Source of the DNA: Elusimicrobia bacterium GWA2_62_23
GTDB taxonomy: Bacteria; Elusimicrobiota; Elusimicrobia; Elusimicrobiales; UBA9959
NCBI GenBank assembly: GCA_001799635.1
Contig: MGTV01000013.1
Span: forward strand, 21,467 to 85,466
Length of the DNA: 64,000 bases
Reading direction: 5' to 3'
A program made the position numbers and the translations under genes. The notes beneath the pieces are model-generated. The model was not told where the DNA came from, did not search any database, and saw only the letters and a list, made by a program, of their open reading frames with translations. This document shows, piece after piece, positions 31,176 to 51,253 of the stretch. Each line of letters starts with the position of its first letter. The first letter of the stretch is position 1.

Positions 31176-31191
31176 GCGACTCAGTGGGAAT

Positions 31192-31224
31192 AAAAAGGCC
31201 CCGCCTGCGCGGGGCCTTTTCTTT
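31192..31224. terminator. Bidirectional intrinsic terminator (second copy of the ggccccgcctgcgcggggcc hairpin)
   Basis: aaaaa-ggccccgc-ctgc-gcggggcc-ttttcttt, between convergent genes. Confidence 0.75.
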
Positions 31225-31236: not shown

Positions 31237-32442
31237 TTAGAACTTGAAGGTAAGGCCAAGGTCGTAGGCATCCTCGGAAAGTTCGGACTTTATGCTGCCG
31301 TCCGAAGAGTTTTCCGTGATCGACTTGGCGAAGGCCTTCTTGTAGCCCACGTTCAGGGCGAACTTGGGAGAGAACTCGTAGCCGGCGCCCAGCGTGAGGT
31401 GGTGCTCCACGATACCGGGAAAACCGATGATGCGGAAGTATTCGTAGTTGTAGGTACTCATGGTCTTGCCCTGCACCACGGTGGTCCCCATCGGATTGAA
31501 ATTATCGTGCTTCTTCAGGGGATTCTTGCCGTAGTTCCAGCCGGCGCGCAGCGTGAGCTTGTCGGTAGTCTTGTTCTGGACGCCCAGGCCGAAAACGGTC
31601 TGGCTCTCCCAGTCGAAGTCGCTGTAGCCGTCGGCGTTGGCCCAGTCCACGTATTTCACGTCCGCGGAAAGCACCCATTTGTCCAGGCCTTTGTAGGAGA
31701 CGCCGGCGCCGTACTGGGCGGGGTTCTCCAGCTTCAGGTCGTCGAAGCCGTTATAGGTGCCGGAAAGGCCTTCCCCGTCGAAGTCGTACACGCGCTCGTG
31801 ATTGACGTTCTGGGGAGTAACGTAGGTCAGGCCGAAGTTCCATTTGCCGTACTCGTAACCGGCGCCGAGGCGCACGCCGAGGGCGTAGTTATGAGAGAGG
31901 CCCTTACCGAAGTCGGCGGCCTGGTAGTCTATGTCGAGGCCGGCGCCGTAGGACAGGCTGCCGTACTTATAGGAGAAGGCCGGCACGAACTTCATGACCG
32001 ACACCTTGGTGTTCATTTTGCCGCCGGTGTCCTTATTGCGGTAATCCACGCCCATGCCGGACACGCCGTAGGCGGCGATGCCGAAGGTGAGCTTGTCGTC
32101 TATCTTGCTGGACAGACCGATGGCCGGCACGGCGTAAGCCGCGTCCTGGCTCTTGCCGCTCCAGTTGCCCACGGGCATACCGGCGGAACGCACCGTGGCC
32201 TTCACGGTAGGCGCGAAGTAAGTGCCGGCGAAGTTGAACTGTGAACCCTCCAGTTGGGAAAGCCCGGCCGGGTTGGTGAAGATGGCGCTGATGGCGTCCT
32301 GGGGGGCAGCCATGCCGGTGCCGCCCATGGCGCGCGAAGCCGGGCCCACGCCTATGAGGTTATCGCCGTTGGTGGCGAAAACGTTCACGGACAGGCCGGT
32401 GAGAACCGCAACCGCCGCTAACACTTTTACCGATTTTTTCAT
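31237..32442 (-). CDS. FadL/OmpP1/TodX-family outer-membrane transport protein
   Basis: Signal peptide. N-terminal GVGPASRAMGGTGMAAPQDAISAIFTNPAGLS and C-terminal ...AYDLGLTFKF. 401 aa. Confidence 0.75.
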   Translation of the reverse strand: MKKSVKVLAAVAVLTGLSVNVFATNGDNLIGVGPASRAMGGTGMAAPQDAISAIFTNPAGLSQLEGSQFNFAGTYFAPTVKATVRSAGMPVGNWSGKSQDAAYAVPAIGLSSKIDDKLTFGIAAYGVSGMGVDYRNKDTGGKMNTKVSVMKFVPAFSYKYGSLSYGAGLDIDYQAADFGKGLSHNYALGVRLGAGYEYGKWNFGLTYVTPQNVNHERVYDFDGEGLSGTYNGFDDLKLENPAQYGAGVSYKGLDKWVLSADVKYVDWANADGYSDFDWESQTVFGLGVQNKTTDKLTLRAGWNYGKNPLKKHDNFNPMGTTVVQGKTMSTYNYEYFRIIGFPGIVEHHLTLGAGYEFSPKFALNVGYKKAFAKSITENSSDGSIKSELSEDAYDLGLTFKF

Positions 32443-32467
32443 TTTTCCTCTGTTTAATTTTCCGAGA

Positions 32468-33019
32468 TCAGATGAACAGCGAAGACTTGCTGCTGCCGGC
32501 CTCGGCCAGGAACTTGGCCACGCCGGCGCTCTTGAGGTTGGGGTAATCTATCATCTCTTCCATCTTGTAGCCCATCAGGTCCATGCTCATCTGGCAGACG
32601 TAGATCTGCACGCCGGAATCGGCCGCGGTCTTCATCAGCTGCCCGAGCGTCATCACGTTGTGCTTCTTCATGATGCTCTTTATCATGGCCTTGCCCATGC
32701 CGCCCATGTTCATCTTGCTGAGCTTGGTGCCGTCGGCGCCGTTGGGCAGCATCACCTCGAACATTTTGGAGACCACGTCCTTGGAGACGGTCTTGTTGGG
32801 GTCCTTCAGCGCCGGGATGGACCAGAAGGTAAAGAACATCACCACCTTCTCGAACATCGCCGCCGCGCCGGTGGCTATAATGAAAGAGGCCAGCAGCTTG
32901 TCCATGTCGCCGCTCATTACCACCATGGAGAGCTTGTCCTCCGGCGCGTTGGCCTTCAGGGTTTCCACGTCGGCCTTGAGGGCCGCTACCTGCGCTTCCA
33001 GTTCTTTTATGTCAGCCAT
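32468..33019 (-). CDS. DsrE/DsrF/DrsH-like (DrsE_2-type) sulfur-relay family protein
   Basis: N-terminal coiled coil, then MVVMSGDMDKL...FFTFWSIPAL...IYVCQMSMDLMG with the conserved Cys. Confidence 0.65.
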   Translation of the reverse strand: MADIKELEAQVAALKADVETLKANAPEDKLSMVVMSGDMDKLLASFIIATGAAAMFEKVVMFFTFWSIPALKDPNKTVSKDVVSKMFEVMLPNGADGTKLSKMNMGGMGKAMIKSIMKKHNVMTLGQLMKTAADSGVQIYVCQMSMDLMGYKMEEMIDYPNLKSAGVAKFLAEAGSSKSSLFI

Positions 33020-33027
33020 AATTCTCC

Positions 33028-33360
33028 TTAATGCGTGTAGTCCAGGATCTTTACTTTATCCCCCACTTTCTTAACTATAGCCTCTTTCATCGCGTCCGCG
33101 TGAGGGCAGGGGAAACAGAGCGGGTTGCCGTTCTTTATGCAGGACGCGAGGGCGATGACCTCTACGCCGCGGGCCACCATCTCTTCCGCGCGTATCACGG
33201 CCCGCTTGCCGGGGCAGCCGCCGCAGGAGACGAAGGCCGTCATCTCCACCGGCCCGGTCTCGGCGAAAGCGCCCTTGCCCAATTGCGCGAACTTGAAGTC
33301 CGTGGTGCCGGGGCAGATATCCTCGGTCTGCTGACAGCGTATTACGCCTGCTTTTTTCAT
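33028..33360 (-). CDS. CGGC-domain protein
   Basis: IRCQQTEDICPGT, FVSCGGCPGK, ALASCIKNG and CFPCPH. Confidence 0.75.
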   Translation of the reverse strand: MKKAGVIRCQQTEDICPGTTDFKFAQLGKGAFAETGPVEMTAFVSCGGCPGKRAVIRAEEMVARGVEVIALASCIKNGNPLCFPCPHADAMKEAIVKKVGDKVKILDYTH

Positions 33361-33361
33361 A

Positions 33362-33730
33362 TTAGTAGGAGAGCACCGTTTTGGCGGAAGTTATTTCTTC
33401 TATCACCTTGGCGGCGCCGACTATCCTGGCATTAGGCACCAGGTCTTTTTCGTCGAAGCCGCGGGCCTTCAGGCACGGCGAGCAGACCAGCAGCTGGCCG
33501 CCCATTTCGGCGTAGGACGCGGCCAGTTTCTCCAGCGGGTCGAACGGGGCGTGATTGATCTCGGCGGTCTTGCCTTTAACCGCGAGGTTAACCCCCTCGC
33601 CCTGCACTATGATCACGGGGTCAACGTCCATGGCGTAGCTGGCGTTAGCCAGCACGAAAGGGATTATGGCCTTCTCCGGGGAATCCTTGAAATGCGTGGC
33701 CACGTAAACTATCTTTTCGTTGTTGTCCAT
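33362..33730 (-). CDS. DsrE-family sulfur-relay protein
   Basis: 122 aa. IVYVATH...IPFVLAN...IIVQGEGV...LLVCSPCLKARG. Confidence 0.7.
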   Translation of the reverse strand: MDNNEKIVYVATHFKDSPEKAIIPFVLANASYAMDVDPVIIVQGEGVNLAVKGKTAEINHAPFDPLEKLAASYAEMGGQLLVCSPCLKARGFDEKDLVPNARIVGAAKVIEEITSAKTVLSY

Positions 33731-34812
33731 TATAAACTGAAGGCCGTGCCGGCCTCAGCCTCCTTTTTAACGTGCTGGAAATAGACCGCGAGCGGGCGGA
33801 AGAAGATGTGGATCCACTTGGTGAACGGCACTATGAGGATTATCCACACCGTCTCTATGGCGATGTTCAGGCGGTAAACCTTGGCGAGCAGCGGGTCCCC
33901 CGGGCCGTAGGCCACGTTGAGGTAATGCGTGAAGAGCAGGCTCGCGCCTATCAGGAACATCGTCACCACGAACAGCCAGTCGCTCGGGTGCGAGAACTTG
34001 CTGGACTCGGCGCTCTTGAAGACGCGGCGCAGCGACATGACCCCGCCGCCGACGAGGATACCGAAGCCCGCGTACCAGACCAGCAGGCTCACCGGGTGGA
34101 AAGCGCCGTAATGCTTGTCCAGCGGCGCCAGCAGGTGCAGGTTGGAGATGAGCAGCGTCAGCACGTAGCCGCTCATGACCAGCAGGTGCGCCGCCCAGCG
34201 CACCAGGTCGGTCTCCTCGCAGCCGTTGAAGTTCTTCTGCGTGAAGCCGTGCACCAGCGTTTCGTAGATATGCGCGGGCTTGAGCGAGGCCTTTATGCCG
34301 CCCAGCGGTTTCACCACCGCGTGGCGGTACATATTCAGGACGTAGCCGCCCAGCGCTACGGTGACATAGACGGGGAAGGCCAGCTCTATTTTCCCGGCGA
34401 GGGCCCCGAAATCCCCGGTGTAGGAGGCGTAGAGCCAGTAGAAGAAAGCCAGCATACCGAGTGCCAGCCAGGTCTGCAGCCAGCCGGTCTTGTAGAAGAT
34501 CTTGGACAGGCCGGTGATATCGTATTTGGCGATGAGGTAGCGGCGCAGGGCCATCATGTACTCGCCGGGCTGGGCCTCGCGCGGGCAGGTGGCGGAGCAT
34601 TCGCCGCAGTAGTAGCAGTGCCAGGGCTCCAGGGCGGAACCTATCTTTTCCTCCATGCCCACGTGGCCGGCGCGGATGAGTTTGCGCGGGAAAGAGGCGT
34701 CTTCCTTGGACAGCGGGCAGACGGCTGTGCAGTTGCCGCAGTTAAAGCAGGCGGAGATGTCGAAGGCGCCGTATTTCTTGATCTCGTCTATGAGTTCGGG
34801 GTTCACCTTCAT
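33730..34812 (-). CDS. QmoC-like subunit: N-terminal 2x[4Fe-4S] domain fused to a polytopic (HdrE/NarI-like) membrane domain
   Basis: CFNCGNCTAVCP and CYYCGECSATCP, followed by about 6 TM helices. Confidence 0.7.
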   Translation of the reverse strand: MKVNPELIDEIKKYGAFDISACFNCGNCTAVCPLSKEDASFPRKLIRAGHVGMEEKIGSALEPWHCYYCGECSATCPREAQPGEYMMALRRYLIAKYDITGLSKIFYKTGWLQTWLALGMLAFFYWLYASYTGDFGALAGKIELAFPVYVTVALGGYVLNMYRHAVVKPLGGIKASLKPAHIYETLVHGFTQKNFNGCEETDLVRWAAHLLVMSGYVLTLLISNLHLLAPLDKHYGAFHPVSLLVWYAGFGILVGGGVMSLRRVFKSAESSKFSHPSDWLFVVTMFLIGASLLFTHYLNVAYGPGDPLLAKVYRLNIAIETVWIILIVPFTKWIHIFFRPLAVYFQHVKKEAEAGTAFSL

Positions 34813-35102
34813 TTCGCGTCCCCTCCCTTCAGTTCGTATTTGGGGTAATCGCCCTTACCTGGCACGTCGGCCAGCTTGCCATACTTGCGCAGGGCGGCCA
34901 CGTACCAGATGGCCTTCTCGTGCGTGAGGCCGGCCGCGGCGGCCAGTTCGGGCGCGGTCTTGGGGCCGCTGCCGAGCGCTTCCAGAATGGCTTTCTGCGC
35001 CTTGTTCTGCGCGGCCACCTGGTCGCGCAGGGCCTGCGGCACCGGGCCGCGGAGTTCATTGAGCTTTTTGAGCTGTTCGGCTAGTTTCTTAGCGTCGGCC
35101 AT
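34809..35102 (-). CDS. Small helical protein, possible winged-helix fold, embedded in the Qmo-like operon
   Basis: 97 aa. Both ends are tightly coupled (35104/35102 and 34812/34809). AILEALGSGPKTAPELAAAAGLTHEKAIWYVAALRKYGKL looks HTH-like. Confidence 0.5.
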   Translation of the reverse strand: MADAKKLAEQLKKLNELRGPVPQALRDQVAAQNKAQKAILEALGSGPKTAPELAAAAGLTHEKAIWYVAALRKYGKLADVPGKGDYPKYELKGGDAK

Positions 35103-35103
35103 A

Positions 35104-36897
35104 TTATTCCTTTGCGATGGCTTCCACCATGGCGTCGAACTGGTCCAGCGTCCAGCCGGCCACGTTTATGGCGCGGACCGGGCAGACCGCCACGCAGGCG
35201 CCGCAGCCTTTGCAGAGCGCCGGGTTCACCACGGCCAGTTTCTTGCCGTTCTTCTCGGTCATCATGAGCGCCCCGTCGTAGGAACACTCGGGCGGGCACA
35301 GGCCGCAGCCGGTGCACTTGTGTTCGTCCACCACGGCCACGAAAGGTTCCAACGGGATGTCCGGCTCGGCCAGCAGGATGGCGGCCTTGGCCGCGGCGGT
35401 GCCGGCGGAAGCCATAGCCTCGGTGACGTCCATGGGGTACTGGGCGGCCCCGGCCACGAAGACGCCGGAGTTGGCCAGTTCCACAGGGCGCAGCTTGGGA
35501 TGCACTTCCTGCAGGAAGCGGTCGGCGCTGGCGGGCAGCTTCATCTGCGACCTGATAAGCGAGATGTCGGCTGGCATCATGCCGGTGACCAGCACCACCA
35601 GGTCCGCCTTGAACTCCAACTCCTCGCCCCAGGTCAGCACGTCCTTCACCTTCACGGTGTGCCCGGTGCGGTCGGAAACGACCACAGGCTGGTCGGTTTC
35701 GTTATGGCGCATGAACAGCACGCCGTCCTTGGAGGCCTTGTCGTAATAGTCTTCATGCTGCATGCCGTAGGTACGGATATCGCGGTACACGTCGTAAACG
35801 CGCACGCCGGGATATTTCTCCTTCAGCTGGTTGGCGGCGTAAAGCGCCGAGGTGCAGCACACGCGCGAGCAGTAATCGTTGATCTTGCCGTCGGCCTGGG
35901 GTTTGTGCACGCCTTCCACCTGGCGCGAGCCCACGCAGTGAATGAGGGCCAGGCTCTTTATCTCCCGGCCGCCGTATTCCAGCCGGCCGGCCGGCAGTTT
36001 CTTCATGAGCGAGATGAATTCCGGCAGCGTGAGCACGTTGCCGTCTTCGCCGTAGCCGAACTCGCCCTTCGCGGGCTTATAATGCTCGTAGCCGGTGGCC
36101 ATTACCAGGGCGCCGGCTTTCACCTGCTGCGAACTGCCGTCTGGCTTCTTGAAATTCACCTTGAAGTTTCCCACGAAACCGCTGACGAAGTCTATTTCGG
36201 CGCCGGTGTGAACCGTTATTTTGGGTTCGGCCAGCACCAGGTCTTCCAGCTTTTTGGCCACGGCCGGTCCTTCCTCGCCGGAAGGGTACATTTTGCCGAG
36301 CTCCAGCAGCCGGCCGCCCAGGCGCGGGGCCTTCTCTATGATGACGGCTTCAAGGCCCTTGCCCGCGGCGGAAAGCGCCGCGCGCATGCCCGCTACGCCG
36401 CCGCCTATCACGGCCACCCTCTGTTCGGCCGCCACGCGGATAGCGTTGAGCGCGTCCTTGCGCAGCACCTTCTCCACGCCGGCCTGCGCCAGCTTTATGG
36501 CCTTGGCGGTGGCGCCGTCGTGGTCGGCCTTATGCACCCAGCTGGCCTGTTCGCGGATATTTATATGTTCGTGCAGGTAGGGGTTAACTCCGGCGCGCTG
36601 CAGCACGCCGCGAAAAGTGAGCTCGTGCAAGCTGGGCGAGCAGGCCGCCACCACCGTGCGGTTGATGCCGAGCTCTTTGATGTCCTTGGTTATGAGGTCC
36701 TGGCCGTTGGAGGAGCACATGAAGGCGTACTCGCGGGCCACCGCCACTCCGGGATACTTGGCCAGCGCCGCGGCCACGGCTTTAACGTCGATGATATCGG
36801 AGATGTTGCCGCCGCAATGGCACACGTAAACGCCGACCTTCGGCTCCTGCCGGTAATTGTCTTTAGACGCGGCTTCCGTTATTTTCTCGTCCATCAC
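35104..36897 (-). CDS. HdrA-like FAD/Fe-S oxidoreductase (QmoB-like, without a fused MvhD domain)
   Basis: VGVYVCHCGGNIS N-terminal cluster motif, VAVIGGGVAGMRAAL FAD site, CSRVCC, and C-terminal CTGCGLCPPEC plus CKGCGACVAVCP. Confidence 0.8.
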   Translation of the reverse strand: MMDEKITEAASKDNYRQEPKVGVYVCHCGGNISDIIDVKAVAAALAKYPGVAVAREYAFMCSSNGQDLITKDIKELGINRTVVAACSPSLHELTFRGVLQRAGVNPYLHEHINIREQASWVHKADHDGATAKAIKLAQAGVEKVLRKDALNAIRVAAEQRVAVIGGGVAGMRAALSAAGKGLEAVIIEKAPRLGGRLLELGKMYPSGEEGPAVAKKLEDLVLAEPKITVHTGAEIDFVSGFVGNFKVNFKKPDGSSQQVKAGALVMATGYEHYKPAKGEFGYGEDGNVLTLPEFISLMKKLPAGRLEYGGREIKSLALIHCVGSRQVEGVHKPQADGKINDYCSRVCCTSALYAANQLKEKYPGVRVYDVYRDIRTYGMQHEDYYDKASKDGVLFMRHNETDQPVVVSDRTGHTVKVKDVLTWGEELEFKADLVVLVTGMMPADISLIRSQMKLPASADRFLQEVHPKLRPVELANSGVFVAGAAQYPMDVTEAMASAGTAAAKAAILLAEPDIPLEPFVAVVDEHKCTGCGLCPPECSYDGALMMTEKNGKKLAVVNPALCKGCGACVAVCPVRAINVAGWTLDQFDAMVEAIAKE

Positions 36898-38183
36898 AGT
36901 TTCCTCATGTAGTTGGCTGCTTCCATGGCGGCCGAGCCAGCGTCCACCACCGAATCGGGGATGTCGCGCGGCCCCTTCACCACGCCGGCAGCGAAGACTC
37001 CGGCCCCCGCGGTTACGGCGGAGGAGACCATTTCATCTGAGAGCTTAACGAAGCCGAAGTCGTTGTTCTGCGTGCCGAGCCCGAAAGATGAGGCGTCGTG
37101 GCCGGGGACCAGCCCCTGCGACAGGATTACTAGCTCGTGCTTAACTTCCTCGGGCCCGGAGGTCCCTTCCTGGCGCTCTATGCGCAGTATGGGGTTATGC
37201 TTTTCGTCCTCGGTGATCCGGGCCACCTTGGCCTTCACGAAGTTGATGCCCATGGCCCGGGCGTTGTTATAGAACTGCTCGTAGCCCTTGCCGAAGGCGC
37301 GGATATCCATGTAATAGATGGTGATGTCGGCTATGGGCAGCGAGCCGGAGAGCAAAATGGCCTGCTTGATGGCGTACATGCAGCAGACGCGCGAGCAATA
37401 AGGAATGCCGATGCTCTTGTCGCGCGAACCGGCGCACTGCACGTAGGCGATAGAGCCGGGCACCATGCCGTCGGACGGGCGCAGCACGCGGCCGTAGGGG
37501 CCGTGAGGCGCCAGCAGGCGCTCGGCGGCCATCGGGGAAATAACGTTAGGCAGCTTGCCCAGGCCGTACTGCTTCTTGGCGGTCATGGGCGTGGTCTCGT
37601 AGCCGGTGGCGAGTATCACGGCCTTGGCCTTGATCTCCACGGGGGCCGGCTCCTGCAGGAACTCAATGCAGTCCTTGGGGCAGGCGCGCGCGCAGGCGCC
37701 GCAGCGGATGCAGTGTTCGGGATGCATCACGGGCAGCTGCGGGATGGCGTTGGTGAAGGGTATGGAGATGGTCTTCTTGGCGCCCATGCCAACCTCGTAC
37801 TCGTCGGGCAGCAGCACCGGACAGACTTCTTCGCAGCGTTTACAGGAGATACATTCTTTTTCGTCTATATAGCGCGGCTTGCGGGTGACGGCGGCGGTAA
37901 AGGTCTTGCCTTCGCGCTTGATGGCGTCCACGGTGCTGTAGGTGAGGGTGGTGATGCGCGGGTGGTGCGAAACGCTGGCCATGCGCGGGGTGGTGATGCA
38001 GCTGGCGCAGTCCAGCGTGGGGAACACCTTGCTGAGGCTGATCATCTTGCCGCCGATGCTCGGGGCCTTCTCCACAATGGCCACGGAATAGCCCTGGTCG
38101 GCCAGGTCCAGGGCGCTCTGCAGCCCCGCTATGCCCGAGCCCACCACAAGAGTATCGACTTCTATCTTTTCAATGGCGTTCAT
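36894..38183 (-). CDS. HdrA-like FAD oxidoreductase with an inserted ferredoxin domain (QmoA-like)
   Basis: TLVVGSGIAGLQSAL, CASC, CISCKRCEEVCP, CIRCGACARACP and YCSRVCCMY. Confidence 0.8.
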   Translation of the reverse strand: MNAIEKIEVDTLVVGSGIAGLQSALDLADQGYSVAIVEKAPSIGGKMISLSKVFPTLDCASCITTPRMASVSHHPRITTLTYSTVDAIKREGKTFTAAVTRKPRYIDEKECISCKRCEEVCPVLLPDEYEVGMGAKKTISIPFTNAIPQLPVMHPEHCIRCGACARACPKDCIEFLQEPAPVEIKAKAVILATGYETTPMTAKKQYGLGKLPNVISPMAAERLLAPHGPYGRVLRPSDGMVPGSIAYVQCAGSRDKSIGIPYCSRVCCMYAIKQAILLSGSLPIADITIYYMDIRAFGKGYEQFYNNARAMGINFVKAKVARITEDEKHNPILRIERQEGTSGPEEVKHELVILSQGLVPGHDASSFGLGTQNNDFGFVKLSDEMVSSAVTAGAGVFAAGVVKGPRDIPDSVVDAGSAAMEAANYMRKL

Positions 38184-38566
38184 ACAGCAGCCACCGCCTT
38201 TTCCATTTCGGAGATCTCTTTGAGGAAAGCCGCCCGGCAGACGGTGCAGATGGTGGTGAGCTTGAGGCGGTTTGCCGCTATGCCCTTGGCCCGCATCTGC
38301 TCGTAAACCCTGGCTATGCGCTTGGAAAGCCGCTCGTAGGCGCCTTCATAGGGACAGTCGGAGCCGGAGGACATGATGATGATGCCGGCTATGCCTTTGT
38401 CGAAGGCCCGCATGTAGAAGTCCTCCGGGAACATGACGGGGTCCGGTACACGTATTACGTAGGTGTTGGCGGAGTACCCCAGCCTGGCCTGCCCCACGGC
38501 GTCGGCCCCGGGGTAGGAACTGTGGTTAGTGGTTATAATCAATATTTTTTTCTGAGTCATGCGCAA
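38180..38566 (-). CDS. MvhD/FlpD-like domain protein with most canonical Cys ligands replaced
   Basis: KILIITTNHSSYPGADAVGQARLGYSANTYVIRVP...GIAGIIIMSSGSDCPYEGAYERLSKR aligns by eye to the remembered FlpD pattern (CNWCSY...GCHxGDCHY..GN), but with T/S/S in place of Cys. Confidence 0.6.
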   Translation of the reverse strand: MRMTQKKILIITTNHSSYPGADAVGQARLGYSANTYVIRVPDPVMFPEDFYMRAFDKGIAGIIIMSSGSDCPYEGAYERLSKRIARVYEQMRAKGIAANRLKLTTICTVCRAAFLKEISEMEKAVAAV

Positions 38567-38591
38567 TTCAAAGAAACCCTTTGAACACTCC

Positions 38592-38730
38592 GGAGGGAGG
38601 GCAAGGGCATGGGTTCCGAGGGCCGTCGCGCAGGCCGAGGCTTACGCAAGCGACGAGGCCGAGCGACGAGGCGCGGGCACGGTGTGTCCCGACGCCGTGC
38701 CCGAGGGGCCCATGCCCTTACCCTCCCGAC
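38592..38730 (-). other. Long imperfect hairpin in the 195-nt tusA/mvhD-like spacer
   Basis: 38595-38613 (gggagggcaagggcatggg) pairs with 38709-38727 (cccatgcccttaccctccc): 18 of 19 bp. An inner hairpin forms between gggcacgg (38675-38682) and ccgtgccc (38695-38702). Confidence 0.6.
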
Positions 38731-38761
38731 TTCACATCCAGCGACGGCGGCTTTTTACAAA

Positions 38762-39007
38762 TTACTTCTTGCGGGTGACGAAGAGGCTGTCGTAGCCGTC
38801 CCTTTCGAGGACGCCCAGGTATTCGTGGCCGGACTTGGCGCACCAGGCCGGGATGTCCTCGCGGCTGCCCTTGTCGCCCGACTGGATCTCCAGGATGCCG
38901 CCCACCGGCACGCCGGCTATGCCTTTTTTGGCTTCCAGAAGCGGGCCGGGGCAGGCCATAGAGCGCGCGTCCACCGTTTTGGCTGCTTTCACTTGGCTAA
39001 GGTCCAT
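38762..39007 (-). CDS. tusA: TusA/SirA-family sulfurtransferase
   Basis: ATG at 39007 follows aggaggat. 81 aa. VDARSMACPGPLLEAKK carries the CPxP active-site motif. Confidence 0.85.
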   Translation of the reverse strand: MDLSQVKAAKTVDARSMACPGPLLEAKKGIAGVPVGGILEIQSGDKGSREDIPAWCAKSGHEYLGVLERDGYDSLFVTRKK

Positions 39008-39024
39008 AGTATCCTCCTGCTGAA

Positions 39025-39327
39025 TTAAAGGTCGAAATTGGGGCAATAAAGCTTCTTGATCCTGGAGATCAGGTCCTCCAGGCGGGGGTCTTTGATGCTG
39101 TAGAAGATGCGGTTGCCGTCGCGACGCTTTTGAATAAGCCCGCGGTCGGCAAGGACGCGCAGATGCTGCGAGATGTTCCCCTTGCTCGTACCCAGCTTCT
39201 CTATAAGCTCGTGCACGAACATTTCCCTCTTCAACAGCATACAAATTATCATAAGGCGGGAGGGATGCGCAATACAGGAAAGCATGCCTGCTATCCCGTC
39301 CGCCTTGGCGAGCATGGTCTTGTTCAT
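39025..39327 (-). CDS. ArsR/SmtB-family transcriptional regulator
   Basis: ATG at 39327. 100 aa. CIAHPSRLMIICML and ELIEKLGTSKGNISQHLRVLADRGLI form the HTH. Confidence 0.85.
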   Translation of the reverse strand: MNKTMLAKADGIAGMLSCIAHPSRLMIICMLLKREMFVHELIEKLGTSKGNISQHLRVLADRGLIQKRRDGNRIFYSIKDPRLEDLISRIKKLYCPNFDL

Positions 39328-39336
39328 GTTGTATAG

Positions 39337-39358
39337 TAGTTTAGGATATACTAAACTA
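39337..39358. promoter_or_regulatory. 8-6-8 palindrome TAGTTTAG-GATATA-CTAAACTA, candidate ArsR operator
   Basis: Perfect arms, 10 nt upstream of the arsR-like ATG, in an AT-rich promoter-like stretch. Confidence 0.45.
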
Positions 39359-39386
39359 GTTGTCAAGGGCCTCCAGGCCCAGGGGA

Positions 39387-39415
39387 ATAAAAAACCGCCG
39401 CGGCTGGCGGCGGTT
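39387..39415 (-). terminator. Intrinsic terminator insulating the ArsR operon from the upstream gene
   Basis: Minus strand: aaccgccgc-cagcc-gcggcggtt followed by ttttttatt. Confidence 0.75.
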
Positions 39416-43005: not shown

Positions 43006-44004
43006 TTAGCGAATGACGCGCCTGCGGACCGCAGGGCGGGGCGCGGGGCGCGAGGGCGGCGGGCCGTAGCGGTCCACGGTCTCGTGGTAGACCACGTCCC
43101 ACTTGAAGCTGACGCCCAGGTGGTGCGTGGGCCCCAGTTCGCCCATGGTGCGCAGGGAATAGTCGAAAGCGGCCGACGGCAGAGACAGACCGAAGCCCAC
43201 GGAGAAGCCGTTGATGCCGCCGGTGTCGCTGGCGGAAGTGTTGTAGCCGGCGCGCAGGACCATGGCCATGTCGTCGCGCAGGAAAGAGGTGTACTTGCCG
43301 CCCACGGCCAGCCACGGGCTGGAACCGCGGGTGATATTGATGTCGAACACCGCCAGCAGGTCGCGCCCGTAGGGCAGGCCCGCGCCGAACTTGAAATTGA
43401 GCGGCAGGGGATATGTTTCGCTGCCGAACTTGAGGCCGCCGCCCAGGTTCTGCACGGAGGCGCCCACCACGCCGCGCCCGGCCCGGCGGGTAATACCGGC
43501 GTCGGCCGCGAAGGCGGTAGCCGAGCGCTTTATGCGGGTGTTGATGTATTTGAGCGAGAACCCGGCCGAGGTGGCGTTGTCCAGGTCGGTGCCCCAGCCG
43601 GCTTCAACGGCCAGGTCGCGCGGCGAGAGGCTGCCGGCGGCCGCGCCGGTATTGTCCGTGGCGTCCATCTTGCCGTAGGAGAGGTGGCGCAGGCCCACGC
43701 CGGCCACGCCGCCGTAAGGCATGCGCACGGCCGCGCTCAGCACGTTAAAGGTGAGGGAATCGGCCCAGGCCGCGTGGGAGAACGAAGCGTAGCCGCCTTT
43801 CACCGAAGACAGGCCGGCCGGGTTGATGAAGATGGCCGGCGACCCGGCGGTAACGGCCACCCCGGCTTCGCCCATGCCGGCGCCGGAAGCGGAGGTGGGC
43901 AGGCGCAGGAAAGCGCCCGACACGGTGCCGTTGTCGGAAGCGGCCTGCGCCGGCTGGCAGGCGGCCAGCAGCGCGGCGGTTAATAGCGCGCCCAGGGTCT
44001 TCAT
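43006..44004 (-). CDS. PorV/PorQ-like (FadL-superfamily) outer-membrane barrel
   Basis: Signal peptide. GAFLRLPTSASGAGMGEAGVAVTAGSPAIFINPAGLS is an N-terminal motif typical of the PorV/PorQ/UPF0164 group. Its ATG overlaps the giant gene's stop (ATGA at 44004-44001). Confidence 0.6.
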   Translation of the reverse strand: MKTLGALLTAALLAACQPAQAASDNGTVSGAFLRLPTSASGAGMGEAGVAVTAGSPAIFINPAGLSSVKGGYASFSHAAWADSLTFNVLSAAVRMPYGGVAGVGLRHLSYGKMDATDNTGAAAGSLSPRDLAVEAGWGTDLDNATSAGFSLKYINTRIKRSATAFAADAGITRRAGRGVVGASVQNLGGGLKFGSETYPLPLNFKFGAGLPYGRDLLAVFDINITRGSSPWLAVGGKYTSFLRDDMAMVLRAGYNTSASDTGGINGFSVGFGLSLPSAAFDYSLRTMGELGPTHHLGVSFKWDVVYHETVDRYGPPPSRPAPRPAVRRRVIR

Positions 44005-47000
44005 CTTTCCACCGCCACTTTAAGCGTCCGCTCGTCGGAACCGGACTTTATGAAAGCCAGGTAAATGCCGCTGGCGGCCTTGTGGCCTTCGGAGTTGCGG
44101 CCGTCCCACACCTTGATGCCGCCGTCGGCGGAAGTCACTTCCATCAGCCGCACCAGCTCGCCGGTGATGGTATAAATCTTTACGCGCGCGGTGGCGGGCA
44201 GGTTGCTGAAGGTCACGCCGGCCGCGTCGAACCGGCCGCCGGCGCCGGGCTGCCACGGCACGGGGTACACCTTTATGGCGGACAGGCCGGAGGCGGGCGC
44301 GGCGAAGACCGAGAAGAAGCTGAAATGGGTGGTTACGCCGGTGATGGTCTTATTGGTCCTGTCCACCGAGGTGGCCAGCTGGGTCCAGGCCCCGCCGGCG
44401 TCGGGCACGGTATAGACCTTAAGGCGCTCCACCGAGGCCAGGGTGCCGTCCACTATGCCGTTATTATCGTCGTCCTTGTAGGAGAAGGTGAGGGCGGCGG
44501 TCTTGCCGGCGGCCAGCAGGCTCTGGCCGTTGGAGAGGTTCACCTTCACGGCCAGGTTCAGGGCGTCGGCCCCGGAGGGCGGCGCGGGCACTGCGGCCGG
44601 GTTGTTCACCAGCGTGAGCGCGGCGGTGGAATCGTTCACGGCGCCGGAGGGAATGACCACCTTGGAGACCAGCGTGGTGGTATCGTCGGCGGCCTGCACG
44701 GTGCTGGTCACGGTGTTGTTGATCTTCTGTTCCTTGCGCTGCTCGCCGGCCGAAACGCTTTCGCTGGTGTCGAAATCCACCGGGTCCACCACTATGGTGA
44801 TGGCCGGCGCGGCCGGGTCGGCGACGCTGTAAATATCCGTGGCCACCGCGCGCAGGTCGTACGTGCCGGCGCCGAGGGCGTCGGCGTCCAGGTGCACGAA
44901 GTAGGGCGCGGCCAGGTCCGGGTTGGGATGGTTGACGTTGGCGGCGGTTATATCCGTCCAGGCGCCGGCGCCGCTAGGCGTGTACTGGAAGCGCACCTGC
45001 GCCACCTGCGAGAGCTGGCCCAGGATGATCTCCGCCACTATGGTGACGCTGTTGCCCTTTACGCGCTTGCCGGCCAGCGGCACCTTTATGGCGGCGCGCA
45101 CGCCGCTGAGCACGCCCACGGCCTGCGCCGAGGCCAGCAGGGAAACGTTCTTCTCTTCGCTGCCGCAGCCGCCGGCCGCCCGCAGGGCGAACTTGTAGGT
45201 GCTGTTGGCGCTGAGGGCCGGGGTGGTCCACCCGGTCACCGTGGAAGTAAAGACGTTGAGCGGCGTATTGTAATCCACCGTGCCGGTGGCATTGTCGTAG
45301 TAGAGGCGGTAGCCTGCCACGGAAAGCGAAGGCGAAGGCTCCCAGGCCAGGGTGATGCGCGCGCCGTCCAGGGCCTCGGCGTAGAACCCTCCGGGCGCGG
45401 CCGGCGTGGAGGCCATGGTGGTGAAAGAGAGTGTGGGGCTGAAGGCGGTGTAAACGCCGGCGCCGTTGCGGGCCCGGGCCTTATAGTAGAAAGGCGAGCA
45501 CTCGGCCAGGGCCGGGTCCGAGTACGCGGTGAGCGCGCCCTCATAAACGTTCTCAAAGGAAATATTATCGGCGGAGCGCCAGAGCTGCAGCTCGGTGCCG
45601 GCCGGGTTGCCGTTCAGGCCCAGCGTTAGCGCGGCGCTGCCCAGCACTATCTGCGAAACCACAGGCTCGGCCGGGACCTGGGCCAGAGTGTACACGGTGG
45701 CGGAAGCGGCCAGCGGCCCTTCACCCTTGTTATTGCTGCCGGCCACCCGCAGGATATTGGCAGAATTCGGCCCGAGGCCCGCCTGCGTATAGGCCGCCGA
45801 GGCGGCGAAAGCGGCGGTGCCCACTGATACGCCGGGATTATTGTAAAGCGCAAAGCCGTCCGCCGAGGCCACCGTGCCGACGTTCCAGGTCCACACTATG
45901 GAACTGACGCCTACGGCGGAGCCGGCCAGGCCGCTGACCAGGCCCGAAGGCAGCAGCACCTGCGTTATGGAGGGGCCGGCCGGGGAAACGTAGGCGGTAG
46001 CCAACGAGTCGCCGTTCACGGCGCGCACACGGCCGTAATAGGTGGCGCCCTGCAGCAGCCCGGTGAAGGCCTTATTCAGGGCGGTACCGGAACCGGATGA
46101 GACGAAAGTGCTGAAAATATTCGACTCGGAGATCTCGTACTCGTAAATGGTGCCGGCCGGGTTGCCGCCGTCGGCCCAGCCCAGCGTGGCGCTGGAGTAA
46201 CCCACCGCGGAGAAATCCGGCGCCGCGGGCAGGGCGGCCAGGGTGTACACGGTGGCGGAATCAACGAGGGGGCCTTCACCCAAAGTGTTGCGGCCGCGCA
46301 CGCGCAGCAGGCGCGGCGAGTTGGGCGTGAGCCCGGCCTGCTCATAAGCGCCGGTGGCGCCGAAAGCCGCGGTGCCCACGAACACGCTAGCCCCGTCGTA
46401 GAAGGCAAAGTAATCGGCGTCGGCCACGGTGCCGGCGTTCCAGGTCCAACTGACGGTGGTGGCGCTCAAGGCGGACCCTGCCAGGCCGGTCACCGAACCG
46501 GAGGGCAGTATAGGCAGCGTCAGCGCGTAGGTGAGGCCTTCAATGTAGGCGCTCTTGAGCCCGGCGCCGTTCACCGCGCGCACGCGGCCGTAATACTGCG
46601 TCCAGGAGGCGAGACCGGTAAAGTCAGCGCTGGTGCCCGGGCCGGAGCCGGAGGAAGTGAAGGCGCCGAAGTCGCTGCTGGTGGAGAGTTCGAACTCGTA
46701 AACGGTCCAGGCCGGATTGGCGCCGGCGGCCCAGACCAGGGTGGCGCTGGTATAGGCCACCGAGGAGAAGTCCACCCAGGCCGGCGCTGAGGCCAGAGTG
46801 ATGCCGAAGCCGCTGGCGATAAAGCCGGAGCCGGGGATGGTGGAGACGAAGCCGTAGTAACTGGTATCTGGAGTAAGCCCGGTGAAAGTAATGGACGTTG
46901 TATCTGTGGAACCTGAGTACAGATATGGAGACTCAGCGGCCCAGGAGGATAGTCGCACCTGGTAAACGGCAGCGGTGCTGTGGGTAGTACTCCAGTTCAC

Positions 47001-50000
47001 GGTCAGCGAGCTCACGCCTATCCCGCTGAAAACGCCTGGGCTCAGCGTACCGCCCGCCGGCAACACATAAGTGAAGGTGCTCGCCACCGGGCCCGGATCG
47101 GAAATATTGCCGGCTGCGTCGTAGGCGCGGACATTGAACAGGTAGGTAGTGCCGCTGGCCAGCGCCGCCTCGGTTATGCCGTTATAGTTCCAAGTTAAAG
47201 TGCCGGTGGAATTATTCCACAACGGGCCGGCGGCCCAGGCGGCGCCATTCCAGTACTGCCCGTCGCTTTCGCGCAGCACGCTTACCTGCACCTGCGCTAT
47301 GCCGTGCGCGTCGGCCGCGGTGCCGGTCAGTTGCGAGAAAGAGCCGTAGGTGCCGGTAACAGGCGCGGTTATGGCCGCGACCGGCGCGGTAAGGTCATAG
47401 GTGAAAACGTTGGTGGCATAGACCACCGACCAGTTGCCGGAAAGGTCCATGGCCCTGGCGGTCACCACATAGGAAGAAGCTTCCACCCAGGCTGGCACAT
47501 TGGTGTAAGTCCAGGACGAAGGCCACAAGGAGGCGTCCACCCAGGCGGGTGCGGCCCCCCACACGGAGCCGTCCCAATAAAGGCCGGACACCAGATTCAG
47601 CACGCTCAAAGTCACGCTGCCCACGGCCACATTGTCAGCCGCCGTACCCGAGAGCTCAGGCAGCGAATTCAGCACCGAATTATGCACCGGCACCATCACC
47701 GCCACCGTGGGGGCCGTGGTATCCGCGTCCACATACGTGAAATTGCGGGTGGAATAATTGACCTCAAAATTGCCGGTGCTGTCCACAGCTTTCGTGGCCA
47801 AGTTGAAGACTTTACCCGGCAAGCCGTCGTGAGTTCCTTCGCGCCAGGCGAAATTAGCGTTGCCGGGATTGGAAAAGTCAGAGCTGGTATAGGTCCAGGG
47901 ATTCATCGTGGACTTGGGCCCGGGGGCGCCGCCTATCGCCCACCATCCCGTATCGGAAGCGGTCCAGTGCGGAAGCGTAGGCTGCCAGTAATATGTGGTG
48001 GCGCCAGAGAGGTACCACATCCTGATGCTTACTGAATTTATCGAGGAGGTAATATCAATGGAAGTGCCGAATATGGACGCCACGGCTGCGGACGAATAGG
48101 AAACGCCATTCAGAGGGAATGTAATCGCCGAAGACGGCGGAGTACTGTCAAAACTGAACGTGGAACTCACAACGCTCGTATTCCCCGCCCTGTCAGCGGC
48201 TTTCGCCTCAACACGCAATTCCGCGTCACGGTCAGGGAACGGCAGTGAGCTGGAGTCGTAGTTCCACGAGAACGTTCCCCCAGCGATCGAAGACCCCACG
48301 GCGATATTCCAAATATCCGGAAAACCGGAACAGTCCGAACTGACCCAACCAGGCAAAGACGCCGCGCCGCAGGATCCGGTCCCATCCATCCAATACTTAT
48401 CCAGCGCCACATCATATATGCGGACCATCGGATAGTCGGAGCCCAAAGCATCACCGGCCGTGCCGTAAATCGACGGGAGCACGGATACGCGCAAAGCATC
48501 CGCCGGGGCGGATATGAAAGCCGTGGGCAGAGTGATGTCGTAAGTAAAAACAGACGTGCTGTAGACCGCGGACCAGTTAAAGGAACTGTCCATGGCACGG
48601 GCGACTATCGTGTAAGAGGAGGCGTCCACCCAGGCGGGCACATTGGTGTAGGTCCAGGACGAAGGCCACAAGGAGGCGTCCACCCAGGCTTGCGCCGCGC
48701 CCCACACCGCGCCGTCCCAATAAAGCCCGGTGTCGTTGCGCAGCACGGACACCGTCACGCTGCCGACCACCACATTGTCGTTAGCGGTGCCGGAAAGAGA
48801 GAGCAGCTGGCTGCGGAACGATGCGTTCACAGGCTGCAGCACCGCCACAGTCGGCGCGGTAATATCGGCCCCGTACCAATCCACGTAGCCGGCCGGATCG
48901 TTCTCATAAAGCGGCCCGGAGCGGGCTCCGGAATAATCGTACATCGTCACGCGCGACCCGGCGGCCAGCGCCAGGGAATTCATGTTGACGCTCAGGCCGG
49001 GACCATTGAAAGCGAAACCGGTAAAGGTGGAAACGAACTGCCCGCCCGTGAATTCGACCCCGGTGGAGGCTCCGGCCATGTCCCGGAAGGTAAGGCTGGA
49101 TATCTCCAGCGAAGCCCCCGCACCCGGCAGCCCCAGCTGAAGACCGACTGCCGCGCCGGCTACCGTATTGGAGGTCACAACGAGATTTCCAAGGTTCCCT
49201 GCGCCGAGCAGTATGCCGGTGCCGGTGGAAACAACAGTATTGCCAAAAGCCGTGAAGCTCACTCCGGAATCCAGCCGCAGAGCGGAATAAGCAGGGATGG
49301 TGGCCACCAGCACGCTGTCGGCTACCACGGCCGCGGTGGAGTCGCGCACAAAGAGGCCGGCGCCGCCGCTTACGAAAGAATCCGCCACCAAAGCGCCATA
49401 GGTGTCGTCCAGGAAAGCGGCCCCGAACACAAGGCCGCCGCCTGAGATAGTGCTGTGAGCCACGGAATTGACGGCGCCGGTAACGTCGGTATAGGCCACG
49501 CCGGCCGGGTTAAGGATGATATTGTGTTCTACGCTGTTGGAGGAAACGCTGACGAGTTTCAGGGCAAAATACGAACCGGCCCCGGAAACCAGCGTGCTGG
49601 AACTGACATTATTGCCGTCAGCGCCAAAACCCAGGAAAGCGCCGTAGCCGGAGGGATTCTCAACGTAACTGCGCGTGAGGGTGTTCTGGTCAGAATTATC
49701 GGCGTGGAAAGCTATGGCGGTGGAATCCGCGGTTATGGTGCTGAGGTCCACCAGGTTGCGATCGGAATTGTTCAGCAGTTCCACGGCGCTGCCGCCCAGG
49801 TTAGAGAAGGAACTCCCGGTAACGGTATTGGAAGAGGACCCGGAAAGGTACAGGGTGGCGTAAGAGGCGCTATTGTTGCCCGCCGAGGTGCGGGCCACCA
49901 GGTTCAGGCCGCCGTCCAGCCTGATACCGTGGCTGAAATCCGCGGTCACTGCCGAGTCCGACACCTCGCTGAGCCCGGCCAGCCGGATACCGGCCAGGTT

Positions 50001-51143: not shown

Positions 51144-51151
51144 AAGCCCTA

Positions 51152-51168
51152 CCGTTATAGTATAACGG
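51152..51168. promoter_or_regulatory. 17-nt palindrome CCGTTATA-G-TATAACGG just upstream of the giant gene's preferred start
   Basis: Perfect 8-bp arms, 9 nt upstream of the ATG at 51143. It lies at the edge of the AT-rich divergent promoter region shared with gsk. Confidence 0.35.
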
Positions 51169-51253
51169 CTGATACGCGAATGCGCCATTCAAATAATTAT
51201 CAAATTTTCCAGAAGATAAAATCATAAAAGTCGCAAATTGGTATCATATACCT

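Follow-up and report, generated by a model that had tools for sequence, protein, structure and literature searches.

A conserved operon linking a Qmo/Hdr-like redox complex with TusA/DsrE sulfur carriers and a FadL-family channel in Elusimicrobia bacterium GWA2_62_23

The DNA analysed here, referred to as the window, is a stretch of 64,000 nucleotides (nt) from the groundwater organism Elusimicrobia bacterium GWA2_62_23 (contig MGTV01000013.1, positions 21,467 to 85,466). Its minus strand carries, from 39327 to 31237, eleven packed co-directional open reading frames (ORFs) that encode, in this order, an ArsR-family regulator, the sulfur carrier TusA, an MvhD-like iron-sulfur subunit, two HdrA-like flavoproteins of 429 and 597 amino acids (aa), named HdrA429 and HdrA597, a small protein named p97, a QmoC-like membrane subunit, a DsrE-type sulfurtransferase, a CGGC-domain protein, a second sulfurtransferase of the DrsE_2 family (DsrE2) and a FadL-family outer-membrane channel. 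The core of this gene set is conserved yet uncharacterised in many anaerobic phyla, and it most likely lets these anaerobes reduce or otherwise process zero-valent sulfur. The features of the locus are the following.

39384 to 39415, minus strand: intrinsic terminator of the upstream DUF2225 gene, which bounds the operon upstream; a GC hairpin (GCCGCC-loop-GGCGGT) with TTTTTTATT after it
39337 to 39366, minus strand: sigma-70-like promoter with -35 box TTGACA (39366-39361), -10 box TAAACT (39343-39338) and a spacer of 17, scan score 10 of 12
39358 to 39337, minus strand: probable ArsR operator, a perfect inverted repeat TAGTTTAG-N6-CTAAACTA that overlaps the -10 box
39025 to 39327, minus strand: ArsR-family repressor of the SqrR/BigR/YgaV type (Pfam HTH_5, 52.9 bits)
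38762 to 39007, minus strand: TusA sulfur carrier with CPGP motif (Pfam TusA, 67.3 bits, cut-off 28.6)
38595 to 38727, minus strand: long GC-rich hairpin in the tusA-mvhD spacer, 133 nt and near-perfect; minimum free energy of the whole spacer -104.8 kcal/mol, z = -4.5
38180 to 38566, minus strand: MvhD/FlpD-like small iron-sulfur subunit, a separate gene, 128 aa (Pfam FlpD, 65.2 bits)
36894 to 38183, minus strand: HdrA429 (Pyr_redox_2 and Fer4), a thioredoxin-reductase-like FAD domain with an inserted 2x[4Fe-4S] ferredoxin domain
35104 to 36897, minus strand: HdrA597 (Pyr_redox_2 and Fer4), with N-terminal cluster domain, FAD domain and C-terminal ferredoxin domain
34809 to 35102, minus strand: p97, a winged-helix protein without Cys that is confined to clusters of this type; candidate accessory subunit
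33730 to 34812, minus strand: QmoC-like subunit, an HdrC-like 2x[4Fe-4S] domain (Fer4) fused to a membrane domain of ~6 helices
33362 to 33730, minus strand: DsrE-type sulfurtransferase with VCSPC motif (Pfam DsrE, 55.9 bits)
33028 to 33360, minus strand: CGGC-domain protein with 7 conserved Cys and 2 His, lineage-specific accessory gene (Pfam CGGC, 95.8 bits)
32468 to 33019, minus strand: soluble DsrE2B-type sulfurtransferase with VCQMS motif (Pfam DrsE_2, 155.6 bits)
31237 to 32442, minus strand: FadL/Toluene_X-family outer-membrane channel with an N-terminal hydrophobic signal segment (Pfam Toluene_X, 97.8 bits, cut-off 29.7)
31189 to 31220, minus strand: intrinsic terminator closing the operon, AAAAGGCCCCGC-loop-GCGGGGCCTTTTTATT and a T-run

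All eleven ORFs were confirmed at the coordinates given for them in the original prediction, which had been made from the letters alone, and their GC content at third codon positions (0.77-0.90) shows a coding-type bias. The junctions listed there also hold, being 4-nt overlaps, one 1-nt overlap and gaps of 1, 1, 8 and 25 nt, and to these are added two that had been missing, of 17 nt between arsR and tusA and of 195 nt between tusA and mvhD. Two start codons are ambiguous: mvhD may begin at 38566 (TTG) or 38560 (ATG), and hdrA597 at 36897 (GTG) or 36894 (ATG), the latter being the start of the version in the metagenome collection. The flanking intrinsic terminators that had been proposed are real GC hairpins with a T-run, the closing one lying 16 nt past the FadL stop codon; three sub-threshold Rfam matches at the terminator were set aside as chance. 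Identical proteins occur in the same gene string on four independent metagenome contigs, and the operon is syntenic across nine Elusimicrobiota genomes. With packed junctions, flanking terminators and a single conserved promoter/operator, the eleven genes form one operon. Profile searches with Pfam and NCBIfam bore out all of the predicted domains, and the CPGP, VCSPC and VCQMS motifs are present. The stated absence of apr, sat, dsr, CCG-domain, sqr and sox genes from the window was also upheld, as none of these families was found by Pfam among the ~46 other window ORFs scanned, a set that leaves out a few small ORFs. Similarly, the operon and the scanned window ORFs gave no match to a NiFe-hydrogenase, formate dehydrogenase (Fdh) or CCG family.

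In the PDB, the ArsR protein is closest to YgaV of E. coli, SqrR of Rhodobacter and BigR of Xylella (E 4e-16 to 2e-15). Its C29 (in RLMIIC) and C95 (in LYCP) align with the sensing cysteines of SqrR (RLMIMC and FC), BigR and YgaV, which are C41/C107 in SqrR and C42/C108 in BigR and form a sulfur bridge upon persulfide exposure. The full-length alignment with NCBIfam BigR reaches 76.7 bits, below the equivalog cut-off of 155, and the protein is therefore a relative of BigR and no equivalog; for 'TsoR', an NCBIfam name among the ArsR matches, nothing was located in the literature. By its alignment, the protein is a repressor of the persulfide-sensing type with both sensing cysteines, and the Chloroflexota versions of the cluster also begin with an arsR gene carrying an N-terminal and a C-terminal Cys. 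The arrangement TTGACA-N3-AGTTTAG-N6-CTAAACT-...ATG is kept in seven Elusimicrobiota genomes (L007, L009, L010, L012, L013, L016 and L019), nearly base for base, despite protein identities of 55-97% and a differing base composition. In the window the arsR ATG lies only ~11 nt past the -10 box, without a Shine-Dalgarno sequence (39325-39343), and this spacing, which is kept in seven genomes, suggests a leaderless or near-leaderless mRNA with arsR as its first gene. Because the sensing Cys pair is aligned, the palindrome lies over the -10 box and the promoter/operator is conserved, the operon is very probably autoregulated and derepressed by sulfane sulfur.

The spacer between tusA and mvhD is occupied by the long hairpin, the arms of which are unique to that site within the window and which is kept, with changed outer stems, in L009, L010 and L019. 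It matches no Rfam family and has no U-tail. The hairpin may act in mRNA processing, stability or attenuation, may set the ratio of ArsR/TusA to complex expression, or may be a mobile palindromic element.

The genes from mvhD to qmoC encode the redox complex. In the MvhD-like subunit, the C-terminal CxxC is invariant (C107 and C110 in 62 of 62 sequences) and C71 is present in 51 of the 62, while the alignment of the cluster class lacks the N-terminal Cys pair of canonical FlpD/MvhD, and one position holds Asp in the Elusimicrobiota clade and a further Cys in Bacteroidales and some Chloroflexota. With the N-terminal pair lost, a CxxC gained and the clade-variable Asp/Cys, the type of cluster and its ligation are uncertain. 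HdrA429 aligns with residues ~140-565 of PDB HdrA (E 1.7e-110), and its cluster cysteines (C59/62, C111-121, C158-168 and C250-268) are invariant in 62 of 62 sequences. HdrA597 aligns with PDB HdrA (E 1.1e-123) in two blocks that skip HdrA residues ~245-325, and has neither the inserted ferredoxin domain nor the DCxxC motif. The NCBIfam HdrA/HdrA2 alignments of the two flavoproteins reach 449 and 492 bits. As their domain coverage is complementary, HdrA429 and HdrA597 together keep one copy per module of the methanogen HdrA dimer. In the HdrABC-MvhAGD structure attributed to Wagner et al. 2017, MvhD reportedly feeds the N-terminal cluster, the C-terminal ferredoxin domain leads to HdrC and the inserted domain leads to ferredoxin.

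The QmoC-like subunit aligns over its full length with NCBIfam qmoC at 132 bits, under a cut-off of 300 that the apr-linked QmoC of locus L087 also stays below (215 bits), and its N-terminus matches PDB HdrC (E 2e-11). Eight cluster Cys are conserved in 83 of 83 sequences, as are His209 and His335, with His188 in 77 and His275 in 66 of the 83. This set of histidines is consistent with two b-type haems, and the membrane domain probably binds haem b and interacts with quinone. The whole complex is predicted to hold ~nine Fe-S clusters.

Between hdrA597 and qmoC always lies the translationally coupled gene for p97, which has no family in Pfam or NCBIfam. When clustered at 50% identity, the p97 proteins of a library of 1.84 billion proteins make up at least 205 clusters. 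The AlphaFold2 model of p97 (predicted local distance difference test score, pLDDT, 91) consists of two long helices and a winged-helix domain, and Foldseek returned generic ArsR, MarR and Z-alpha folds only. Membership of the DsrC or DsrD family was rejected, as p97 has no conserved Cys and no DsrC/DsrD match in Pfam, PDB or Foldseek. A role as the operon's regulator was judged unlikely because the protein occurs beside four different dedicated regulator types (ArsR, Crp, LysR and sigma-54 activator) and its gene is translationally coupled inside the structural genes.

The distribution of the cluster was surveyed by scanning one genome per species of the GTDB set with the QmoC-like alignment, which gave 598 confirmed matches; the best 80 loci were annotated by comparing their ORFs with the eleven window proteins, and neighbours were clustered within 4 kb. 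The order TusA-MvhD-HdrA(~430)-HdrA(~600-650)-p97-QmoC is kept in 58 of these best 80 loci, in at least eight phyla. Carriers of the core belong to the Elusimicrobiota, Bacteroidota, Chloroflexota, Krumholzibacteriota, Planctomycetota, Desulfobacterota, Spirochaetota and unclassified metagenome-assembled genomes (MAGs), and they include Bacteroidales/Marinilabiliales with the isolate Ancylomarina longa T3-2 and a Labilibaculum, Anaerolineales, Phycisphaerae, Desulfobulbus, Desulfobacterales and a Rectinemataceae spirochaete. The closest named relatives of the QmoC-like protein are from Elusimicrobiota MAGs, with Elusimicrobia bacterium GWB2_63_16 as the best genome match (97% identity). A gene of the DsrE family or superfamily is adjacent in 49 of the 58 syntenic loci. 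Regulators near the core are of the Crp/Fnr type in 19 Bacteroidales loci and ArsR in 11, with LysR and sigma-54 activators also found, and other recurrent neighbours encode YeeE/YedE, secreted rhodaneses and a Porin_O_P porin. The cross-phylum synteny and the number of p97 clusters argue for a widespread conserved system and no one-off, and the linkage of TusA/DsrE-type carriers with a Qmo-like complex, first read from the window, turned out to be conserved across phyla.

One of these loci carries an informative neighbour. In the Rectinemataceae MAG (L015), the core proteins of which come near those of the window in score (QmoC-like 68% identical), dsrE2 is directly followed by a gene (11894-14422) for an 842-aa fusion of Pyr_redox_2, Pyr_redox_dim, Rhodanese, TusA and DrsE_2 domains, the N-terminal part of which presumably has the architecture of NADH-dependent persulfide/CoA-persulfide reductases. 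Other gene arrangements were also seen among the loci: L038, L058, L069 and L077 (Bacteroidales) have HdrA(~600)-QmoC-HdrA(~580)-MvhD without TusA or p97, their HdrA proteins falling in separate clades, and L037 (Methanoperedens) has two QmoC-like genes with fused HdrA and MvhD genes.

The subunit logic of the complex is that of QmoABC, with which it shares two adjacent HdrA-derived flavoproteins, an MvhD-type module, an HdrC/haem-b membrane fusion and a likely menaquinone link. It could then be an ordinary QmoABC displaced from an aprBA-sat set elsewhere in the genome, serving APS reductase in sulfate reduction or sulfite oxidation, with the relay genes as bystanders. The end-to-end alignment with NCBIfam qmoC would agree with this, and among the rows listed from the supplement of PMC10504309 there is one Dsr-carrying Elusimicrobia MAG (UBA10166) with HdrA-QmoC pairs. 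However, the locus differs from the apr-linked arrangement in gene content and in descent. The control locus L087 (Clostridiales) has sat-aprB-aprA-qmoA-qmoB-qmoC, with a QmoB of 739 aa to which a C-terminal MvhD/VhuD domain is fused, whereas here MvhD is a separate gene, the conserved winged-helix p97 is additional and a persulfide-type repressor heads the operon. The cluster is invariably beside tusA and usually beside dsrE-family genes, and no homologue of Sat, AprB or AprA lies within 10 kb of it in any of the 58 syntenic loci (phmmer with L087 queries, L087 being positive), nor does any other of the 80 loci besides L087 have one at this distance. In a neighbour-joining tree, the two TusA-linked HdrA paralogues form two clades of their own with mirrored internal topology, the pattern expected if both proteins were inherited together as a unit, and the apr-linked QmoA/QmoB pair falls outside. 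The paralogues score 197-238 bits against the L055/L087 QmoA/B and 430-1349 bits within their class, and their resemblance to methanogen HdrA structures (E 1e-110 to 1e-124) is much greater than that to the apr-linked QmoA/QmoB. Additionally, the carriers include fermentative Marinifilaceae isolates, and Ancylomarina and Labilibaculum probably have neither aprBA nor sat in their genomes. A displaced QmoABC is on these grounds extremely improbable, and the distinction that the original prediction drew from the Qmo of APS reductase stands.

A closer published match is what Neukirchen et al. 2023 (PMC10504309) call type II Qmo, which according to them is nearer to hdrA, occurs in organisms whether or not these have Dsr/Apr, and has an unclear role; this description fits the window cluster. 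GWB2_63_16, Ancylomarina and Labilibaculum are absent among the supplement rows listed, which is weak evidence.

The sulfur carriers retain their expected cysteines. Cys19 of TusA is invariant in 59 of 59 cluster-linked TusA proteins. In DsrE, a weak match to the DsrE3A structure 3MC3, the VCSPC Cys (numbered 83) is conserved in 9 of 9 sequences and presumably sits at the active-site position of TusD/DsrE; a match of this protein to the repeat protein BurrH in the PDB was discarded as an artefact of summed weak repeats, with no single stretch passing. DsrE2 matches PDB 3PNX (E 6e-28) and 2QS7 with the active-site Cys aligned, conserves Cys142 in 23 of 23 sequences, and has no transmembrane helix beyond its core strand (NCBIfam DsrE2 57.5 bits, cut-off 210). 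Alignment of the carrier cysteines with conserved active-site positions had been set in advance as a test of the sulfur relay, and TusA C19, the DsrE VCSPC Cys and DsrE2 C142 all lie at such positions.

The CGGC protein, which has no PDB relative, had been put forward as a possible redox partner of the complex, and this part of the original prediction is not supported. Its gene adjoins the cluster only in the window and in the close relatives L009, L010 and L013, plus the metagenome loci L153, L156 and L171, so that it is not part of the conserved system, and with adjacency restricted to one lineage (four closely related genomes) the protein is unlikely to be a general redox partner. Genes for CGGC proteins of ~147-160 aa also lie within a few kb of the TusA/Qmo-like cluster in L022 (11465-11908), L085 (14366-14809), L067 (12447-12929) and L088 (17273-17719). 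This recurrence near Bacteroidales and Chloroflexota clusters hints at a loose association beyond the Elusimicrobiota.

The last gene of the operon encodes a protein distantly related to the TodX, CymD and TbuX structures. It starts 25 nt past dsrE2 without a terminator between them, which makes an independent promoter unlikely, and its membership of the operon, as proposed at the outset, is further supported by the repeated linkage of its clade with DsrE2/TusA elsewhere. In the nine Elusimicrobiota genomes the FadL gene follows dsrE2 or dsrE, with a gap of 117 nt in L013 and of 24-44 nt in the other eight. Six homologues from other lineages (48-50% identity) were compared for context, and five of them have a DsrE2 orthologue and a winged-helix regulator just upstream, the DsrE2 scoring 200-222 bits in four and being more distant in L089 (40 bits). 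The minimal forms are ArsR-DsrE2-TusA/FadL in L089 and MarR-DsrE2-FadL in L093 and L094; L091 and L092 have MarR-DsrE2-TusA-NarI-like-Fer4/CCG protein-FadL-Rhodanese/metallo-beta-lactamase-ATP sulfurylase. A metagenome scan seeded by the distant FadL clade gave 80 loci. In at least 24 of these, the NarI-like/CCG pair, or the end of it, immediately precedes FadL, in ~15 DsrE2 and/or TusA adjoin FadL directly, and 6-8 of the 80 are the Elusimicrobiota Qmo-like form. Where at least 3.5 kb of upstream sequence is available, ~19 of 29 FadL loci carry DsrE-family or TusA genes.

These surveys also brought up a second recurrent and uncharacterised cluster, MarR-DsrE2-TusA-NarI-like (Nitrate_red_gam)-Fer4/CCG-FadL, at L091 (4340-10635), L092, L096, L098-L100, L109, L117, L125, L128, L129, L142 and L173. 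Often a Rhodanese/metallo-beta-lactamase fusion and ATP sulfurylase come after it, beside a canonical-looking qmoCBA.

The window operon is a join of two recurrent modules, TusA with the Qmo-like complex and DsrE2 with FadL, since elsewhere DsrE2-TusA-FadL pairs with a module of the HdrDE/DsrMK type in place of the Qmo-like one. Modules of the HdrDE/DsrMK type reduce or form protein-bound S-S bonds using the quinone pool. No other indirect argument speaks as strongly as this swap for relay-bound sulfur being what the Qmo-like complex uses as redox substrate. In another explanation, the complex would be a general oxidoreductase between ferredoxin (or another donor) and menaquinone, TusA and DsrE would supply or repair its Fe-S clusters and FadL would be an unrelated lipid or hydrocarbon channel. 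The large number of predicted Fe-S clusters, together with no S-S catalytic site, would suit such an enzyme, and the FadL relatives with solved structures carry aromatic hydrocarbons. However, sulfur donors dedicated to a single enzyme follow no known pattern, the FadL clade is linked with DsrE2/TusA in about two thirds of the sufficiently flanked loci even without Qmo-like genes, and the persulfide-type regulator, the rhodaneses, YeeE and the reductase fusion all indicate a sulfur substrate, which leaves a general oxidoreductase very improbable.

From these comparisons it is moderately probable that the complex exchanges electrons with TusA/DsrE-bound sulfur. We infer its electron-transfer steps, substrate and direction, with S8 or an organosulfur compound as the substrate of the FadL channel, in the following form. 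The SqrR/BigR-type ArsR would sit on the palindrome over the -10 box and be released once sulfane sulfur bridges Cys29 and Cys95. Poorly soluble zero-valent sulfur (S8, polysulfane or organic polysulfide) would enter via FadL and be captured as persulfide or polysulfide on the cysteines of DsrE2, DsrE and TusA. The Hdr/Qmo-like complex would then exchange electrons between the relay-bound sulfur and the menaquinone pool, along a path of quinone, haem b, the HdrC-like clusters of QmoC, the C-terminal ferredoxin domain of HdrA597 and FAD, which ferredoxin may join via the inserted ferredoxin domain of HdrA429; on the sulfur side, entry would be through MvhD and the N-terminal cluster of HdrA597. 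The net result would most likely be persulfide reduction to H2S as an electron sink, in S0 respiration or in sulfane-sulfur detoxification, in an anaerobe without oxygen-dependent persulfide dioxygenase.

The reductive version of this scheme, with an operon induced by sulfane sulfur and relay-bound sulfur being reduced, is given an even chance. The FadL channel, secreted rhodaneses, porin and YeeE are uptake devices that H2S would not need, and point to an external sulfane-sulfur substrate. These uptake parts favour the reductive direction, together with the reductase-type fusion of L015 and the lack of an enzyme oxidising sulfane sulfur to sulfite, as DsrAB, sHdr/LbpA, persulfide dioxygenase (PDO) and Sor were found neither in the window operon nor in the core cluster. 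In the reverse direction, the complex would oxidise sulfide, or load imported sulfane sulfur, to TusA/DsrE persulfide while reducing menaquinone, perhaps bifurcating to ferredoxin, either as an SQR-like sulfide detoxifier or as a persulfide source for the thiolation of tRNA and cofactors. In favour of this, electrons passing from the S0/H2S couple to menaquinone run thermodynamically downhill, biosynthetic thiolation is known to use TusA as a donor, the heterodimer retains one copy of each HdrA electron branch, and the regulator is of the same type as SqrR, BigR and YgaV, whose regulons are typically made of sulfide-oxidation or detoxification genes. The parts counted above for reduction are equally the case against it, as the channel, periplasmic rhodaneses, porin and YeeE are needless for H2S, the clusters have no downstream oxidising enzyme and the fusion beside L015 is of the reductase type. 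The Black Sea offers evidence on both sides, where several sulfide-tolerant taxa lack sqr, and where Marinifilaceae isolates from the sulfidic water, including Ancylomarina and Labilibaculum, are sulfide-tolerant fermenters reported with an 'Hdr system' and without observed sulfide oxidation (PMC11129491); that 'Hdr system' may be of the window cluster type. Overall, the reverse direction is considered rather unlikely.

Several points weigh against the reduction of relay-bound sulfur by this complex. The core subunits have no recognisable S-S catalytic site and no CCG/HdrB domain, the CxxC of the MvhD-like subunit being their sole unexplained thiol pair, and the operon is without a gene for an inner-membrane sulfur transporter. 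Substrates of FadL proteins are usually hydrophobic organics, and to our knowledge none of these channels has been shown to carry S8. Persulfide sensors of the SqrR/BigR/YgaV type also govern oxidative sulfide-detoxification operons, and the type of regulator therefore cannot fix the direction. Menaquinol alone is too weak a reductant for S0/H2S (~-270 mV), and reduction would therefore require a low-potential donor such as ferredoxin for confurcation. A flavin-based bifurcating or confurcating enzyme fed with S8/polysulfanes by FadL, having protein persulfide (TusA/DsrE2-S-SH versus thiol plus H2S, ~-270 mV) at mid-potential, menaquinone at high and ferredoxin at low potential, is quite unlikely; if it were true, it would provide a hitherto unrecognised form of energy conservation or electron disposal on zero-valent sulfur without Dsr, Psr or SQR in fermentative Bacteroidota, Chloroflexota, Elusimicrobiota and others.

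The substrate could also be thiosulfate or tetrathionate, in which case TusA and DsrE would carry a thiosulfonate (R-S-SO3-) that the complex cleaves reductively to sulfite and sulfide. Thiosulfate cleavage demands an even lower potential than that discussed above. In Chloroflexota and Bacteroidales, YeeE/YedE (a thiosulfate importer family), rhodaneses and the anion-type Porin_O_P porin do lie beside the core; the window operon, however, has a channel of the hydrophobic-compound type with no YeeE or anion porin, and the cluster is without sulfite reductase or sulfite exporter. Even with DsrE3A and TusA as demonstrated thiosulfonate carriers in Metallosphaera (PMC4175335), a thiosulfate or tetrathionate substrate is improbable.

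Zero-valent sulfur bound to the relay remains the preferred substrate. The system is best filed with Qmo/Hdr-type complexes fed by TusA/DsrE relays, and it lies outside canonical QmoABC, sHdr and DsrMK. From methanogen HdrABC-MvhAGD it differs in having no CCG-domain HdrB and no partner hydrogenase or formate dehydrogenase in the operon or the scanned window. The sHdr system is likewise an Hdr-derived complex, the genes of which stand with those of TusA and DsrE-family carriers delivering sulfane sulfur (PMC11094781), and both HdrA paralogues are detectably related to its sHdrA (PDB 6TJR). Unlike sHdr, the cluster described here has no sHdrB1/B2 CCG subunits, lipoate-binding protein LbpA or lipoate ligases (sHdrB1/B2, sHdrC1/C2 and LbpA were found neither in the operon nor among its recurrent neighbours), and it has a membrane haem-b anchor, two HdrA proteins that are both of the full methanogen type, and fermentative/anaerobic hosts rather than sulfur-oxidising lithotrophs. 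With DsrMK(JOP)/HdrDE acting on the DsrC trisulfide it has in common that a small cytoplasmic Cys-carrier would present sulfur to a quinol-linked membrane Fe-S/haem-b module; the window differs by the lack of a CCG catalytic subunit, by HdrA-type bifurcating flavoproteins instead, and by TusA, DsrE and DsrE2 as carriers, where DsrMK has DsrC.

Operons controlled by SqrR, BigR or CstR (sqr-pdo-rhodanese; cst; CoA-persulfide reductase, Npsr) resemble the window operon in the two-Cys ArsR-type sensor and in their Rhodanese/TusA/DsrE carrier domains, and a fusion of the flavoprotein persulfide-reductase type stands beside the sister cluster in L015. The window operon differs from them by having no SQR and no oxygen-dependent persulfide dioxygenase, and by its multi-subunit membrane Hdr/Qmo-like partner and outer-membrane channel. 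The YTD cluster of sulfur disproportionators (YedE-TusA-DsrE(FH type II)) also combines TusA with a DsrE-family carrier, as the cluster described here does, sometimes with a YeeE/YedE importer. However, YTD does not include a redox complex and is restricted to Desulfobacterota and Nitrospirota that contain Dsr, whereas here the carriers appear wired to the Hdr/Qmo-like complex in phyla that are mostly without Dsr.

The original prediction knew of no characterised system with this composition, and none was found in the open full-text literature either; an earlier bioinformatic mention in subscription reviews is possible. Open-access papers that name QmoC and TusA together were all on canonical Qmo or the YTD cluster, and the published Elusimicrobia genomics paper contains no discussion of sulfur metabolism. 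The closest published statements are the type II Qmo remark (PMC10504309) and one sentence on an 'Hdr system' as a possible sulfide-detoxification trait (PMC11129491).

If the proposed role is true, many anaerobes scored as plain fermenters, among the Marinifilaceae and other Bacteroidales, Anaerolineales, Elusimicrobiota, Krumholzibacteria, Phycisphaerae and some Desulfobacterota, would carry a dedicated and regulated machine for zero-valent or persulfide sulfur, and hence an unrecognised route in the cryptic sulfur cycle of sediments, aquifers and sulfidic water columns. The 'type II Qmo' proteins of genomes that have neither Dsr nor Apr would gain a function, the uptake of elemental sulfur or polysulfanes across the outer membrane would have its first candidate channel, and HdrA-type flavin chemistry would be placed in a new natural context. 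The presence of the core cluster in cultured Ancylomarina and Labilibaculum makes the hypothesis directly testable.

Outside the operon, the window has some further features. Positions 1-1650 have a GC content of 48%, compared with ~63% for the genome, and contain no convincing ORF, tRNA or Rfam match. An adenosylcobalamin (AdoCbl, B12) riboswitch was found at 18464-18598 on the minus strand (52 bits, gathering score 50), with a TonB-dependent receptor gene (16566-18536) directly downstream of it and a ferritin gene and a NifU/Fe-S gene set nearby (13917-16502). At 44001-51188, also on the minus strand, lies a giant ORF of 2395 aa that probably encodes a cell-surface protein, given the faint Big_3, Beta_helix and fn3 matches in matching metagenome contigs.

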